Positions 4,452 to 63,357 of a stretch of DNA of 64,000 bases are shown here, one piece after another. The DNA is taken from the NCBI GenBank assembly GCA_964016885.1, contig OZ024743.1, forward strand, positions 66,278,001 to 66,342,000, read 5' to 3'. The notes below the pieces were generated by a model. That model saw only the letters and a list, made by a program, of their open reading frames with translations, did no database searches and had not been told where the DNA came from. The translations under genes and the position numbers were made by a program. This DNA comes from Eledone cirrhosa (lineage: Eukaryota). The first letter of the stretch is position 1. Each line of letters starts with the position of its first letter.

Positions 4452-4720
4452 ATACAATATATTAACAAATGGAAACTATATTTATAAAACCATATTTATT
4501 TCATTATACATATTTCAAGGACACCAAAGCAAATTATGGTGCGCTTTCATCAGATAAAATATAATATAGATCAGTTTTATAAACAAATATTGACATACCC
4601 TTAAAGAATGCGACTATCCGGGAGCTTCCAACCGACATGGATAGCCGGAGCTTCCAACCGACATATCAGTTATAAAAATATTTGCTTGTTGTATCCCAAC
4701 AAATTAAATATAACTTCTAC
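4452..4720. mobile_element. collapsed PLE-derived fold-back element (family F1): inverted arm plus 3' tail, in (TA)n
   Basis: 4452-4632 matches the left arm of 20705-21316. 4663-4720 matches its plus-strand tail. The junction has a short GGAGCTTCCAACCGACAT duplication. Confidence 0.8.
4498..4560 (-). ncRNA. minimal type I hammerhead ribozyme
   Basis: Minus strand reads ATTTTAT-CTGATGA-stem II-GAAA-TATGTA-TA-ATGAAAT. Confidence 0.8.
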
Positions 4721-9645: not shown

Positions 9646-9830
9646 GAAAACTCAGGACCCTGAGGGCTGAGCGCCAGCCGTTTCGACAGCTAGGTTCAGA
9701 CCTAGTTGTCGAAAGGTCGGAGCTCAGCCGTCGGGGTCTTTACTCTTTTCCTATTATCCACTCTACGACCCTAATTATCGAGTACCATGGTACGTTATGG
9801 TGCACCTGGTTCATTACCACACTTCCTTCT

Positions 9831-9868: not shown

Positions 9869-14186
<4,318 letters not shown>

Positions 14187-23074: not shown

Positions 23075-25014
23075 CACCGTGTAACATATTTTTTGTTCCC
23101 CGGTTCTAAGTGTCATTTCATGGTTTGTTATATCCCATTATTACAAAAAAAAGACTATTATTTAATCAGAAGTTTGGGTTTGTGGTGAGGAGTTTGATAT
23201 TTCGAAATTTTCATATTTTTCAAGAAAAAAAACATTTTTTAAAAATTTATCAGTTCATATAATTAAATCAACAGATTATATATTTATTTTATTACACAAG
23301 TTTATCAAAAGCAAACAAGTAAAAACAAATAACACTTATAAAGCAACTTATACACGTCAGAAATTACTGGATTTCCTGGATTTGCGGTTGTAATACAGGT
23401 CGCATTCCACCACTAGCCCCCAGATATAGTCCCCCCTCATTTTTTCATTGTAGTGACCCTGGTACTTCCGCTCTATCTCTTTCACATCTTGGTGGAATCG
23501 TTCGCCTTGTTCTTCTGAGTAGACGCCCGTATTGTCCTTGAATTGTTCCAGGTGAGCGTCCAGCATATGGGGTTTAAGCGACATCCTGTATCCCATGGCG
23601 CCAAAAGCCTTTATCAGATCCTGTACCAGTTGCTGGTAGTTTTCAGCGCTGTAGTTGCCCAGAAAGCCCTTGACAACTGCCTTGAAACAGTTCCATGCTG
23701 TTCTTTCAATCCTATTTTGCTTATTGGAGAACTCGGTAGACTCAAACACCTTCTTTATCTGAGGTCCAACAAAAATGCCACCTTTGATTTTGGCCTCAGA
23801 TAACTTGGGGAAGAACTCAAGAACGTACTTAAAAGCGGCTGATTCTTGGTTTAGAGCCTTCACAAACTGCTTCATCAACCCCAACTTAATGTGCAGTGGC
23901 GGCATGAGCACAATCCTGGGATCAACCAGTGGCTCCCACATGACGTTGCGGGTCCCAACTACAAATTCTGTTCGCTGCTCCCAGTTCTTTCTTTTGCAGT
24001 GGTCAGAGGTGGCTTTGATAAAGCCTCCTTGGAGTCCAAGCAGGAAATGCACCATCTTGATGTCTCCAATGATTTCCCAATTGTACTGGTTGTATTGCAG
24101 AGCTTCCAAGAGGACTTTCACACAGACTGAATGAGCTAAGGGCAGTGTCGGGAACTTGTTTCCATTGTGGAGGAGAACAGGCTTCAAACTTGTGGTGGAG
24201 CTGTCTATAAATAGCCGCCATTCCTTGGGCACAAACGGCACCCCAATAACGTCAAACAGTTCAGACACGTCATGGCAGAAGCAGAGGCCATCCCTAAGAG
24301 TGTAAAAGCCTGAGAAAGGTTCGGGTCGACTTCTCTGACTTGTCACCTGCACTTCCTCCAAGACCAAGTTCCACTGCTTCATCCTGGAGACGAATAGCTC
24401 TACATTGGACTTGGTCAGACCCATATCCTTGACCAAATCATTGACTTCTTTTTGGTTTGGGAAGTGAGGAACTTTTTCTGGTACCTCAGGCAGGTAATCC
24501 AAGTCCTAAGCATCCATCTCCTCCTTTTCATCAGAATACTTGTCTTGGAAAATAAATTTGATATGCAATACAAAATAAATATTGGAAAGGGAAATACATA
24601 TTTAAATAATATAAAAGAACACTAATCATACTAATGAAAATTCGTGCTTAAAACACAACTTACCCTTTATTCAGGGTGCAAAAATCCAGTATCAATAAAT
24701 CTCTTTAATCCACTTTTTAACAATTTTATACTTTATTGCACTTTTACAATTTTCTTTAGGTATTACTCTTTATTTTATAATTTTAATTTAACTTGAAACA
24801 TATATAAACAAATTATTTAACATAAGCAAATTAAACTTACATACAACGTAACATCCAGCATACAAATAATTCTAGCGAATAGCTTAGAATTTTTACAAAC
24901 CCAAACTTTTAACTGTTTAATAGCACTTTTTTTTATTTATTTGTGGGCCTAAGCAACACAAAAAAGTGATTACAAGCCAGGAAGAGAGAAAACAATTTTT
25001 TTTGTTACACGGTG
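23075..25014 (-). mobile_element. Chapaev3-type (CMC) DNA transposon, internally deleted
   Basis: CACCGTGTAACA...TGTTACACGGTG termini, imperfect ~110-bp TIRs, and a TAA 3-bp TSD (23072-23074 and 25015-25017). Confidence 0.88.
23357..24502 (-). pseudogene. Chapaev3 transposase, C-terminal 381 aa, probably defective
   Basis: Motifs WRLFIDSS..SLK.VLLHNGN, GDIKM, PPLHIKLGLMKQFVKAL, SEAKIK.GIFVGPQI, MSLK.H.L..H and SEEQGERFHQD. The C..C motif expected after LQGGF and the N-terminus appear to be missing. Confidence 0.85.
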
Positions 25015-41502: not shown

Positions 41503-41756
41503 CATTAAATATACATTCAGGAAGTTAAATAAAAGAAACGTATTAATAAAAGAAAAGTATTAAGCCGTACATACTTATATTTAAGTAACAGCCGTACTAA
41601 GAGTGAGAAATGAAATTTCGTTTCATTTTTTCCGTTTATCGTTTTCGGTAACCCGGCCGATTAACTCACTCGATATGCAAATTAGGCTGCTCAGCCGTTA
41701 ATATGCATAAGGAAAGTATATACTTTCAGACGTTCAATCATCTGGCAGGAAGGTAT

Positions 41757-41799
41757 ACGTTGCTGACGATAGCTAATAAGCTTGAAACTAGTACAGCGT
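41757..41799 (+). ncRNA. minimal type I hammerhead ribozyme, unit 1
   Basis: ACGTTG-CTGACGA-TAGCT(AATA)AGCTT-GAAA-CTAG-TA-CAGCGT. Cleavage is predicted after 41793. Confidence 0.93.
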
Positions 41800-42189
41800 T
41801 CTTTTGTCAGTGTTGAACAAATGAACAACGATGGTTGCTAGACACTGTACGGCTTAATACGGGATGTTTGTTTACAAACACACCGAGCATTATAATAAAT
41901 GTTCGGTGAATCCATACGTACATATATATGTGTGTGCATGTATATATATATATACATATAGATACTACTGTACGTCTTTATACATATATGTATGTACGTA
42001 TACATACTTATATTTAAGTAACAGCCGTACTAAGAGTGAGAAATGAAATTTCGTTTCATTTTTTCCGTTTATCGTTTTCGGTACCCCGGCCGATTAACTC
42101 ACTCGATATGCAAATTAGGCTGTTCAGCCGTTAATATGCATAAGGAAACTATATACTTTCAGACGTTCAATCATCTGGCAGGAAGGTAT

Positions 42190-42232
42190 ACGTTGCTGAC
42201 GATAGCTAATAAGCTTGAAACTAGTACAGCGT
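42190..42232 (+). ncRNA. minimal type I hammerhead ribozyme, unit 2
   Basis: Identical motif. Cleavage predicted after 42226. Confidence 0.93.
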
Positions 42233-42624
42233 TCTTTTGTCAGTGTTGAACAAATGAACAACGATGGTTGCTAGACACTGTACGGCTTAATACGGGATGT
42301 TTGTTTACAAACACACCGAACATTATAGTAAATGTTCGGTGAATCCATACGTACATATATATGTGCGTGCATGTATATATATATATATACATATAGATAC
42401 TACTGTACGTCTTTATACATATATGTATGTACGTATACATACTTATATTTAAGTAACAGCCGTACTAAGAGTGAGAAATGAAATTTCGTTTCATTTTTTC
42501 CGTTTATCGTTTTCGGTACCCCGGCCGATTAACTCACTCGATATGCAAATTAGGCTGCTCAGCCGTTAATATGCATAAGGAAACTATATACTTTCAGACG
42601 TTCAATCATCTGGCAGGAAGGTAT

Positions 42625-42667
42625 ACGTTGCTGACGATAGCTAATAAGCTTGAAACTAGTACAGCGT
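42625..42667 (+). ncRNA. minimal type I hammerhead ribozyme, unit 3
   Basis: Identical motif. Cleavage predicted after 42661. Confidence 0.93.
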
Positions 42668-43059
42668 TCTTTTGTCAGTGTTGAACAAATGAACAACGAT
42701 GGTTGCTAGACACTGTACGGCTTAATACGGGATGTTTGTTTACAAACACACCGAACATTATAGTAAATGTTCGGTGAATCCATACGTACATATATATGTG
42801 TGTGCATGTATATATATATATATACATATAGATACTACTGTACGTCTTTATACATATATGTATGTACGTATACATACTCATATTTAAGTAACAGCCGTAC
42901 TAAGAGTGAGAAATGAAATTTCGTTTCATTTTTTCCGTTTATCGTTTTCGGTACCCCGGCCGATTAACTCACTCGATATGCAAATTAGGCTGCTCAGCCG
43001 TTAATATGCATAAGGAAACTATATACTTTCAGGCGTTCAATCATCTAGCAGGAAGGTAT

Positions 43060-43102
43060 ACGTTGCTGACGATAGCTAATAAGCTTGAAACTAGTACAGC
43101 GT
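43060..43102 (+). ncRNA. minimal type I hammerhead ribozyme, unit 4
   Basis: Identical motif. Cleavage predicted after 43096. Confidence 0.93.
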
Positions 43103-43534
43103 TCCTTTGTCAGTGTTGAACAAATGAGCAACGATGGTTGCTAGACACTGTACGGCTTAATACGGGATGTTTGTTTACAAACACACCGAGCATTATAATA
43201 AATGTTCGGTGAATCCATACGTACATATATATATATGTGTGCATATATGTATATATATATACATACTACTGTACGTCTGTAGACATACTTATATTTAAAT
43301 AAAAGAAACTTTCTGAAAAAAGCAAAGAAAAGAAAATCAGAACAAACACAGAATTTTATAGATTTACTAAAACAGAGTCACATTAAAATAAAGGTTTCTA
43401 ATTGATTTTACATGTATACCTGTATAGTATTCCTAACGCCCAGTGGAGTGGTAGGTGACATACGGCGTGTCTTGGACATATAAATCAGGCGGCGCTCTTC
43501 CCCCTCTCCAGGTTTCAACTCAGCGGATTACTTT

Positions 43535-47955: not shown

Positions 47956-48018
47956 ATTTCATTATACATATTTCAGGGATACCACATTAAATTATGGTAT
48001 GCCTTCATCAGACAAAAT
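47956..48018 (-). ncRNA. minimal type I hammerhead ribozyme
   Basis: Reverse complement of 48174-48236. Confidence 0.82.
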
Positions 48019-50016: not shown

Positions 50017-52352
50017 TTAGCTGTATACTTTGTGAAATGTTTTATGGAATTTATGCAAGCAGATAGAAAACAAGTCAGTGCGTCTATTTATTATAGAATC
50101 TAAATTAGAAATAATGGTAAATTTTTCATTTAGACAGAGATTGCAAATTTTGGATAGAGAACTGTTCAAGTATAAAGACGCAGAAGAAACCTTCTTCCAA
50201 AAGATGCTATATTTAATATTTTTGTCTTTCAAGGACCATATGAGTTCTGAAAGAGCCGTGTTGGTTCTTTTAAGTTTGTATTTAAAAGACGAATGATGGT
50301 TATAAAGACGAGCTTTAAAAGAGGTGGAAGTGGAGCCAAAGTAGGTGAAGGAATTGGTGTCAGTTATAAATTTACATTCGTAAATTAAGTTTTTATCAAG
50401 ACAATGGTTGTTGAGAGGACATTTATTGTTAATAGGGCAATTGCAATTGCGATTAGAGAGATTATTAATGAGTGACCTAATATTATCTATAGAAGGAATT
50501 GGATTGGAGAAGTTATTTGCGATAGGAATAATAGTTTCTTGATTTAGAATGGGATTAAGAACATTTAGCGAAGTTGTGTTTGACGTTGTATTTGGGTTTG
50601 TAGAAATTAGCCTAGGGTTTACAATGACGCCGGGAGTACTATTATTATGATATTCAGTGTTGGAAGGAAGAGATTTAGTATTTAGTATTTTATTGTTGTG
50701 TTTAGAGATAATGTTGGAAATGTTGAAGGATGTAGAATAGGAAAATTTTATAGTGTGTTTCTTAAATATTTTACTATAGATATGTGAGGGAGGGAAGCAT
50801 TTATTTAAGGCACTAAAGAATAATTTAGGAATATTGTTATTAATAGAGATGGAGAAAGGAGCATTATACCAGATTATGTTTTTGTATCTAGGTCTTTTAT
50901 TAAAGTTATTGGAATGATCATGATTAATTATTCTACTGTAATTTCTTCTAGAATTTGTTTCTTTACTATATTTGATTTTATCAGGATAGCCGGCTTTAGA
51001 AAGCGCGTTATTATAGTAATTGGCGTTAGCATCAAAGATGTTTTTATTAGAAGATAGGTTAGATATTCTTTTTCCAATATTACTAACTATAGCATTCTTG
51101 ATATTAGTAGGATGGTTAGATTTAAAGTTAACATAATTTAGGTTCTCATTGTTTTTATGGTAAGGGTAATATAGGCCAGTGTCAAGATTAAGAGATACAT
51201 CCAAGAAATTAGCTAGTTTGATACTGTTATCAAATTAAATTTTTAGGTTATGTTTGTTAAAGAGATTACGTATATTGTTCTTAATAATATTAAGGTTAAC
51301 TATGTTGCAATTTAAGATAGTAAAGAGTCCATCGTCACGATAAATTCCACCGCGAAGTTGAGGAATTTTCCGACTCAAAGAGTTCAAAATAAAGATACCA
51401 ATTAAATCTGTCAATTGGGATGAATCGGATGCTCCCATTGTGATGTCGAAGTTGTTAGAGGTATCGGCTCTGGTCCAATATTCGTTGTTGAACTCTCTGA
51501 TGGTTTTACGTGCGGTGAGAATGATGTGAAGTTCATCTGTGGTGATGTCAGAATATTTAAGTGCGAAAGATAGAGCATTATTGAGAAGTGAAGGCGAAAT
51601 AGAAGAATAGTAGCTGGCAATATCAAATTGAACAAATTTTAGTTTGTTTTTATTATTCAATTTGTTGAACCAGCTAATCACTTCAGAAGTACCAAACCAT
51701 AAATTTAGGTTCAAAGAAGAGCAATTAGAACGAACCTGTGGGATAATTCTATCCAAGATGGCTTTACTAACAACCCCCAGATCTGATTTAGAGGGGGCGA
51801 TTAATCTAACAGGTAGTTCAGTGCGAAAATTGTTTTTGTGATCCTTGAGATTTATCCTCGGAGTTCTTGGGAGGAATGGTTCTGTCTTTTTTCAATGCCA
51901 AGTTTTGACATAATCTCAGAGGCTTCAAAGTTTATGTATTCTAAATTTTCATGGTTGGTTTTACGATATTTTTTCCTAAGTTCCTTTAGGATAAGGTTGT
52001 TATAATTATCCTTGGAAATACCATATAAGTTATTGGTTTTGTCAGAGCGGACTAAAACATTTTTTGAGGAATTTAGGTTTGAAATTGTGTTCTTGAGATT
52101 TACAAGGTGCTCTTGTCCTTTGTAAGGGTATCTCTTGAATTTAAGATTTTTTATAATTTTAGTTAACTCTTCCTCGAATTGCACTAGATTTTTGTTGGAA
52201 GGAGGATTTCTTCTAGAATTAAATAGATGATCGAGGAAGTTATGTTCTTTGGTATAGAAGTTCCCTTTTAGGCGCTGGTCATAGAAATAGGCTATCCATC
52301 TAAGTCTTCTTACGAAGGAGACAGTTTTTTCAATTAGAAGTTTGTTCTTATA
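50017..52352 (-). pseudogene. PLE RT + GIY-YIG polyprotein in three pieces (two breaks)
   Basis: Motifs FVRRLRW, SDKTNNLY, LKDHK..F...PVRLI.P, QFDIASYYSSI, ITMGASD, IYRDDG, NFLDVSL, SNHP, IIWYNAPFS, CNC...CPL..HC, LIY...YFGST..FKAR..NH and CNLCLNEK...CLH. Confidence 0.92.
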
Positions 52353-52441
52353 TATTATGTATACTCCAGTCCTACAAACTGTAGAGTGCTTCTTATCCGA
52401 TATCTGCATTGCTTTATTGTACTACAATAAAACTCATCTCC

Positions 52442-60493: not shown

Positions 60494-60777
60494 CATCATC
60501 ATCATATCTTGGCGCGCCAGTGCCGTATCCATTGAAGTGCAGCGACGTTTCCTTCCATCAGGTCTTGGTCGGAGCGTGTGGGTCCCAGTGAGCACCCATG
60601 GAGGATGTGGGCTATGGTCTGGCTTACAGGTTGGAAAAGTGGAGGGTGAGTGACCGCCGCCCACCCAACGCGGCCTTACCAAGCCCAAATGAAAGCCTCC
60701 CCAATGGATCATCTCTTAGCAGAAAGGACTGGGTAACCCTAAACAGGGCCAGAGCAAAAACGGGCAAAACTGGAGAC
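60494..60777 (-). mobile_element. RTE-X-like LINE 3' end with 5' inversion
   Basis: Minus strand 60494-60628 reads QTIAHILHGC...ALQWIRHWRAKI* plus a (TGA)n tail. Plus strand 60628-60777 reads PNESLPNGSSLSRKDWVTLNRARAKTG. Flanked by CAGA(A/G)AACT. Confidence 0.78.
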
Positions 60778-63357
60778 CAGAGAACTGTGTCTATATATGT
60801 CTTCTGAATACATATTATATATATGATGAGAGATTCGTAACCAGAGAACTGTGTGTATATATGTCTTCTGAATACATATTATATATATAATGAGAGATTC
60901 GTAACCAGAGAACTGTGTCTATATATGTCTTCTGAATACATATTATATATATGATGAGAGATTCGTAACCAGAGAACTGTGTGTATATATGTCTTCTGAA
61001 TACATATTATATATATAATGAGAGATTCGTAACCAGAGAACTGTGTGTATATATGTCTTCTGAATACATATTATATATATGATGAGAGATTCGTAACCAG
61101 AGAACTGTGTGTATATATGTCTTCTGAATACATATTATATATATAATGAGAGATTCGTAACCAGAGAACTGTGTCTATATATGTCTTCTGAATACATATT
61201 ATATATATAATGAGAGATTCGTAACCAGAGAACTGTGTGTATATATGTCTTCTGAATACATATTATATATATGATGAGAGATTCTTCTACCAGAGAACTG
61301 TGTGTATATATGTCTGGACTAGGGGCGGTGGATTGGCAGTATCGGTAGAGGGTCGGACGCCATGCTTTGACGCATAGAGTTACGGCCCTTACCATTCTGA
61401 GTTCAAATCCTGCCGAGGTTAACTTTGCCTTTCATCCTTACGGGGTTGATAAAATAAAGTACCAGTAACACACTGGGTATTTGCTGTCCTTGTGCCAAAA
61501 GTAGAAACAATTATATATATAATGAGAGATTCGTAACCAGAGAACTGTGTCTATATATGTCTTCTGAATACATATTATATATATAATGAGAGATTCGTAA
61601 CCAGAGAACTGTGTCTATATATGTCTTCTAAATACATATTATATATATAATGAAAGATTCGTAGCCAGAGAACTTTGTATATATGTCTTCTAAATACATA
61701 TTATATATATAATGAGAGATTCGTAACTAGAGAACTGTGTGTATATATGTCTTCTGAATACATATTATATATATAATGAGAGATTCGTAACTAGAGAACT
61801 GTGTGTATATATGTCTTCTGAATACATATTATATATATTATGAGAGATTCGTAACCAGAGAACTGTGTCTATATATGTCTTCTGAATACATATTATATAT
61901 ATAATGAGAGATTCGTAACCAGAGAACTGTGTCTATATATGTCTTCTAAATACATATTATATATATAATGAAAGATTCGTAGCCAGAGAACTTTGTATAT
62001 ATGTCTTCTAAATACATATTATATATATAATGAGAGATTCGTAACCAGAGAACTGTGTGTATATATGTCTTCTGAATACATATTATATATATAATGAGAG
62101 ATTCGTAACTAGAGAACTGTGTGTATATATGTCTTCTGAATACATATTATATATATAATGAGAGATTCGTAACTAGAGAACTGTGTGTATATATGTCTTC
62201 TGAATACATATTATATATATTATGAGAGATTCGTAACCAGAGAACTGTGTCTATATATGTCTTCTGAATACATATTATATATATAATGAGAGATTCGTAA
62301 CCAGAGAACTGTGTCTATATATGTCTTCTAAATACATATTATATATATAATGAAAGATTCGTAGCCAGAGAACTTTGTATATATGTCTTCTAAATACATA
62401 TTATATATATAATGAGAGATTCGTAACCAGAGAACTGTGTGTATATATGTCTTCTGAATACATATATATATAATGAGAGATTCGTAACCAGAGAACTGTA
62501 TGTATATATGTCTTCTGAATACATATATATATAATGAGAGATTCGTAACCAGAGAACTGTGTCTATATATGTCTTCTGAATACATATTATACATATAATG
62601 AGAGATTCGTAACCAGAGAACTGTGTCTATATATGTCTTCTGAATACATATTATATATATTATGAGAGATTCGTAACCAGAGAACTGTGTCTATATATGT
62701 CTTCTGAATACATATTATATATATAATGAGAGATTCGTAACCAGAGAACTGTGTCTATATATGTCTTCTGAATACATATTATATATATTATGAGAGATTC
62801 GTAACCAGAGAACTGTGTCTATATATGTCTTCTGAATACATATTATATATATTATGAGAGATTCGTAACCAGAGAACTGTGTCTATATATGTCTTCTGAA
62901 TACATATTATATATATAATGAGAGATTCGTAACCAGAGAACTGTGTCTATATATGTCTTCTGAATACATATTATACATATAATGAGAGATTCGTAACCAG
63001 AGAACTGTGTCTATATATGTCTTCTGAATACATATTATATATATAATGAGAGATTCGTAACCAGAGAACTGTGTGTATATGTCTTCTGAATACATATTAT
63101 ATATATAATGAGAGATTCGTAACCAGAGAACTGTGTGTATATATGTCTTCTGAATACATATTATATATATTATGAGAGATTCGTAACCAGAGAACTGTGT
63201 CTATATATGTCTTCTGAATACATATTATATATATAATGAGAGATTCGTAACCAGAGAACTGTGTGTATATATGTCTTCTGAATACATATTATACATATAA
63301 TGAGACATTCGTAACCAGAGAACTGTGTCTATATATGTCTTCTGAATACATATTATT
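60778..63357. repeat. 64-bp minisatellite, about 37 units
   Basis: Unit ATGAGAGATTCGTAACCAGAGAACTGTGTCTATATATGTCTTCTGAATACATATTATATATATA. Outlying units lie at about 60046 and 60460. Confidence 0.97.
61323..61512 (+). mobile_element. SINE family 1 inserted in the minisatellite
   Basis: Full-length copy. Confidence 0.92.

Follow-up and report, generated by a model that had tools for sequence, protein, structure and literature searches.

A four-unit hammerhead array in Eledone cirrhosa is probably one retrozyme insertion, likely copied by a Penelope-like element and enlarged by local duplication

Introduction

Four near-identical tandem units, each with a hammerhead motif, lie at 41525..43309 of a 64,000-nt stretch of Eledone cirrhosa DNA (hereafter the window) and are enclosed by a single target-site duplication (TSD). 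The locus raises the question of whether a single event wrote the whole array from a circular RNA, as an earlier note on this DNA held probable, or whether the array reached its present size in some other way. We consider it probable that the array goes back to one insertion of a non-coding retrozyme present in many copies, likely copied by a Neptune-type Penelope-like element (PLE), and likely of about two units that grew to four through two local duplications.

Results

A tandem-repeat scan of the window returned a 4.0-copy tandem at 41568-43287 with a period of 435 and 97% matches, which bears out the claim of four hammerhead-bearing units of ~435 bp. All lie on the forward strand: unit 1 at 41571..42003 (433 bp), unit 2 at 42004..42438 (435 bp), unit 3 at 42439..42873 (435 bp) and unit 4 at 42874..43294, in which 20 nt are missing near the end. 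Each holds one CTGACGA (starting at 41763, 42196, 42631 and 43066), a 14-nt stem II, GAAACTAGTA and a 6-bp stem I. The type I hammerhead motif, with extended stem I, spans 41743..41810 in unit 1, and its counterparts span 42176-42243, 42611-42678 and 43046-43113 in units 2, 3 and 4. Placed by GAAACTAGTA, the predicted cuts fall after 41793, 42226, 42661 and 43096 at spacings of 433, 435 and 435, and the motif positions thereby agree with the predicted cut sites and the 433-435 nt monomers put forward earlier. Every unit also repeats a 59-nt segment, here called the tail (41581..41639 (+) in unit 1), which lies between unit positions 10 and 69, the two sites at which family copies end at their 3′ side. 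Upstream of the hammerhead, at 41675..41723 (+), ATGCAAAT (41675) and TATATAC (41717), which we take to be an octamer and a TATA-like motif, may serve as an internal promoter; both motifs are kept in a sister family and altered in a 422-nt subfamily. It presumably parallels the octamer promoter of newt satellite 2, for which a literature search returned nothing.

The 15-bp TSD, TTAAATAAAAGAAAC, occurs at 41525..41539 (+) and again at 43295..43309 (+), and only 3 of 2000 random flank pairs from the same window matched over at least 15 nt. The duplication reported in the earlier note therefore stands, but on the left it does not abut the array, being separated from unit 1 by a 31-nt junction scar (41540..41570). 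Part of the unit recurs inverted in this scar, as 14 nt (41557-41570) that are the reverse complement of 41847-41860. The scar also includes a 17-nt near-duplication that spans the target junction, and has the appearance of a miniature PLE-type 5′ inversion; a 5′ scar resembling it is found at another locus, L024. At the right end unit 4 stops, without a tail, at the first of the family's 3′ sites (CATACTTATAT), and the TTAA that opens the right TSD also matches the continuing unit, giving up to 4 nt of microhomology. The target is AT-rich DNA that is not a microsatellite. A TSD combined with such a target is unlike most family copies, and we count this against the explanation that we prefer.

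The dispersed multi-copy family that a retrozyme implies was readily found: the genome matches a 19-mer spanning the cut site exactly at 9,682 places (reversed control, 0) and a 35-nt hammerhead pattern that includes sister families at 23,602. A 76-nt query retrieved 30 loci, one of which is the array itself, and ends were tabulated for the other 29. The 3′ end falls at unit position 10 in 11 of these loci and at 62-69 in the remaining 18, two sites that lie 59 nt apart. The 5′ ends vary in position, 13 of the 29 loci carrying an inverted piece at the junction, and copy length runs from 0.6 to 2.3 units, exceeding one unit in 19. Across 64 loci, 46/72 terminus stops run into TA-type repeats, a count in which some 'other' stops may be mutated read-throughs; moreover, in contigs of one independent sample of undefined kind, loose ends leave the unit after 42072 (position 69) and enter (AT)n. 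The array ends at position 10, where copies of the family normally end, and this accounts for its offset of ~220 nt from the cut site. The earlier note had read this register and the integral copy number as signs of rolling-circle copying. Neither survives the comparison, as the ends sit at a family-wide fixed site in 29/29 loci and the other loci run 0.6-2.3 units. The offset marks a fixed priming site, as PLE initiation within an uncut RNA would explain (PMC11167929), and is therefore no evidence of a circle.

Multi-unit arrays are common in the family. The sister family, with a unit of 490-545 bp and 1,101 candidates, ends at the same two sites, and its arrays reach 7-8 units (loci L031-L053). 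A large family array of at least 14 kb lies at G000:C21:33956133-33969964 and carries one variant in many of its units. At L102 the variants of a four-unit array alternate as ABAB, another sign of dimer duplication or of a dimeric template. A comparison of core conservation (0.9% vs 3.7%) was discarded, being biased by the choice of loci.

Within the motif, stem II consists of 4 bp over a U.U mismatch and stem III of one pair capped by the palindrome CUAG. The description of an intact minimal hammerhead is right for the core, which is intact in 4/4 units, but the motif is not fully minimal, given the form of stems II and III. Rfam returned no hammerhead family at E<=5, and the hammerhead call therefore rests on pattern and folding; Rfam microRNA matches, which fell below threshold, were rejected as TA-repeat artefacts. 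A double hammerhead formed through ACUAGU is favoured (-19.4 vs -1.3 kcal/mol for one monomer fold), in agreement with the dimer-type hammerhead that had been predicted. Folded as a circle, the cut-to-cut monomer reaches -131 kcal/mol (z -7.0, 60 shuffles) with 71% paired and its ends held together, and minus its TA domain it gives z -6.2. The sister family, ~70% alike in the divergent part, keeps the hammerhead core and has a stem I wobble pair swapped, so that stem I covaries between the two families. Pairing is kept in 7/12 double changes (~35% expected) and in 10/26 single changes (~38% expected), and covariation judged from these alignments appears modest overall. Two pairs are changed in the helix that would join tail to unit body (278-285 with 20-27), and in the sister family each of these changes is compensatory. 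On the folding models, self-cleavage of the array units is predicted; 8/9 Xenopus retrozyme dimers failed to cleave in vitro (bioRxiv 10.64898/2026.07.22.740005).

Next to the fold stands the question of which RNA was copied. In most family copies the sequence continues across the cut site. A pattern search for 5′ junctions matched 77 times at the cut, where 21/30 inspected were true junctions, and 126 times at an imperfect control site, where ~40 of the 100 listed look true by hand count and at least 18 come from one array. A cut linear monomer as the main template was rejected, there being no marked 5′ pile-up at the cut (<1% of ~9,700 copies). Because copies cross the cut site and show no such pile-up, the template was either uncut or re-ligated. 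At locus L087, seven direct units adjoin an inverted arm and variant 110T is present in 8/9 full units across both arms, a sharing that fits a uniform template, circular or uncut multimer alike. Within-locus sharing as a general measure (0.82 direct, 0.73 inverted, 0.14 between loci) was set aside as an argument for a circle, since subfamily sites and a single large locus account for most of it. No A-to-I editing scars were seen among the rare changes (28 A>G vs 23 T>C, p=0.49). We entertain, tentatively and with some doubt, the idea that the true template of the PLE RT is a retrozyme circle, that is, a monomer cut by dimer hammerheads and re-ligated, whose conserved tail-body fold aims the two starts. 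Were this true, the family would offer a 435-nt minimal substrate for a test of circle against uncut-multimer copying.

The history of the four units is recorded in their variants, which were compared with 23 other copies after duplicate loci and the array's own loci had been dropped. Six derived sites are common to units 1-3 and one to units 2-4, while units 2-3 only have two derived sites and a TA insertion in common. Two of the six are also seen among the 23 other copies, position 232 in 5 of them and position 255 in 2. Genome-wide, the double-variant patterns are found in only 2+1 and 3+2 places (array units + outside), and the three outside matches lack the other variants. Had an RT gone round one circular RNA four times and so written all four units at once, only private differences between units would be expected; the shared blocks are instead nested and local, and the end register is that of the whole family. 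Such a circle would be in keeping with the single TSD around all units, with the strong circular fold of the monomer and its joined ends, with read-through of the cut site, with the 110T variant of L087 as a uniform template would give it, and with the circRNAs made by related retrozymes (PMC7229834); we nevertheless regard this origin as very unlikely. Because the shared mutations are nested and private to the locus, the four units are not independent copies of one circle in one block. Of the proposed retro-insertion of the whole array, the retro-insertion with a TSD is upheld and the single four-unit block is not.

A mixed four-unit linear transcript from an array elsewhere could also have been retro-inserted as one block. 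One TSD, the frequency of multi-unit arrays and the role of uncut RNA as main PLE substrate in vitro (PMC11167929) would all suit this, but the assembly holds no source or sibling that carries the diagnostic variants, and we consider such an event unlikely. Judged from the variants, the array likely entered as about two units, copied from a circular or an uncut template, and was later duplicated twice in place. In the simplest history the insertion comprised two units, the putative founders A (unit 1) and B (unit 4), and was followed by an unequal crossover between positions 146 and 160 and by duplication of the hybrid; unit 2, with a 5′ part like unit 4 and a 3′ part like unit 1, would be that hybrid and unit 3 its duplicate. 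Gene conversion in an original 4-mer could leave the same variant pattern.

The ends of the family point to its mobiliser. PLEs form partial tandems and inverted 5′ copies and have an optional tail (PMC8557442), and in vitro the RT of the Poseidon PLE starts internally, at two sites between which the tail lies, uncut RNA being the main substrate of PLE RT (PMC11167929). In our family, 29/29 loci end at one of two fixed 3′ sites, with the optional tail between them. Copies are truncated or inverted at the 5′ side and form partial tandems, and their targets are AT-rich or (TA)n, the array locus being AT-rich; an RT plus GIY-YIG ORF is absent from the unit. The borrowed RT of the earlier proposal is thus supported, the end architecture matching the PLE 'tail' signature, and the family was likely copied into the genome by a Neptune-type PLE enzyme. 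An intact PLE family is present in the same genome, with a 775-aa RT+GIY-YIG ORF, 4.2-kb tandems, inverted copies, a ~60-nt tail, (TA)n targets and a hammerhead motif ~90 nt before its end. From its cysteine linker, which we take to be the mark of the type, we call it Neptune-type; the linker criterion itself is described in a section of PMC8557442. The genome contains 28,166 PLE candidates, of which 150 were scored, and terminal comparison was made with one intact family. With this one autonomous family the unit has no alignable DNA (blastn), and the intact PLE therefore indicates the enzyme class and not the partner.

The unit might alternatively be no more than the pseudo-LTR that belongs to a coding PLE, multiplied through truncated copies and without an independent existence. 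Its end architecture is that of a coding PLE, and Xenopus retrozymes match PLE pLTRs (bioRxiv 10.64898/2026.07.22.740005). However, 59 read-throughs at site 2 have the tail continuing directly into the next unit. Moreover, 78 loci were searched with the 775-aa protein by tblastn; this search, which missed the window's own degenerate PLE pieces and can miss divergent PLEs, gave two matches, a fragment nested in the TA tract of a sister unit (L051) and a distant fragment (L084), neither in ORF-to-unit order. We therefore find the pseudo-LTR highly improbable and retain a non-coding family copied by a PLE enzyme. At L051 4731-5722 the nested fragment is a 5′-truncated copy of the intact PLE, in the same orientation as the sister-family unit, inside the unit's internal TA tract; the unit thus carries its own kind of target.

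Other features of the window include two PLE-like remnants. At 50017-52421 (-) lies a frameshifted PLE-like ORF with a cysteine linker and a GIY-YIG-like end, which matches the intact PLE protein weakly (E 2e-05) and has no Pfam match; downstream of it, hammerhead-like motifs of a different family stand in inverted arrangement at 48011(-), 48181(+) and 49144(-). A second degenerate PLE-like ORF set, in several frames and with an asparagine-rich insert, occupies 10801-13731 (-) and has no informative Pfam match. Hammerhead-like motifs of two other families are found at 4553(-), 20803(-), 21130, 22269(-), 25536, 26785, 63770(-) and 63842, the last two forming an inverted pair. A 64-bp minisatellite of ~41 copies spans 60776-63356. 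The 382-aa open frame at 23357-24505 (-), without a Pfam match, resembles a DNA transposase.

Discussion

Taken together, these data suggest the following course of events. A tandem locus would be transcribed, possibly from the octamer/TATA segment, and a PLE protein would nick AT-rich DNA. Its RT would start at one of the two fixed internal sites, 59 nt apart and ~220 nt downstream of the hammerhead, cross the hammerhead site on an uncut multimer or a re-ligated circle, and halt to leave the truncated or inverted 5′ junctions that are seen. At the array locus, unequal crossover would then have made the hybrid unit that was later duplicated. In the RNA, neighbouring hammerheads are predicted to cut as dimers through ACUAGU, which would free highly paired monomers of ~435 nt; circularisation may follow.

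No description of this family was found in a search of the literature on octopus and cephalopod retrozymes, hammerheads and PLEs, in line with the earlier note, to which none was known. The class is described (bioRxiv 10.64898/2026.07.22.740005; PMC7229834). With its many copies, the family supplies evidence of PLE mobilisation from the insertions themselves and on a large scale. The array locus serves as a caution, in that a whole-number array inside a TSD can arise by later duplication and need not record rolling-circle copying. Moreover, the presence of the family and an intact PLE in one genome makes the circle question testable in vitro.

Metazoan non-LTR retrozymes, as described in parts of PMC7229834, have tandem units of 150-450 bp, low GC and a type I hammerhead. 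The Eledone family shares the unit size, low GC and hammerhead type, and also a monomer that is highly self-paired in the folding models and a long TSD when present. Its tandem non-coding units within 150-450 bp, each with a type I motif, its TSD and its many dispersed copies support the retrozyme class first suggested for the array. In the same parts of that source, axolotl HHR_Amex1 has a stem III of one pair with a palindromic tetraloop and HHR_Amex2 a U.U at the base of stem II, both as in the array unit. Unlike the retrozymes covered there, the family consists mostly of dispersed copies of 1-2 units with fixed PLE-type ends.

A study of 35 species that names no mollusc class has proposed that retrozymes depend on PLEs, on the grounds that they co-occur with PLEs and resemble their pLTRs; it also proposes local tandem growth after insertion by unequal crossover (bioRxiv 10.64898/2026.07.22.740005). 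Whereas that proposal draws on pLTR similarity, the evidence here is insertion architecture, no pLTR homology being found with the one PLE family compared. On every testable feature the family is both a metazoan non-LTR retrozyme and a non-autonomous PLE, with cleavage and circles predicted from its sequence. The EN+ PLEs Neptune and Poseidon, in the portions of PMC8557442 and PMC11167929 that treat them, differ in that the family has no ORF and a tail of 59 nt rather than 30-40. They share with it partial tandems, inverted 5′-truncated copies, AT-rich or (TA)n targets and a tail that is optional and lies between the two points where RT starts. Multicopy head-to-tail arrangements like those of this family are also formed by non-autonomous Chlamys, MRC1 among them (PMC8557442).
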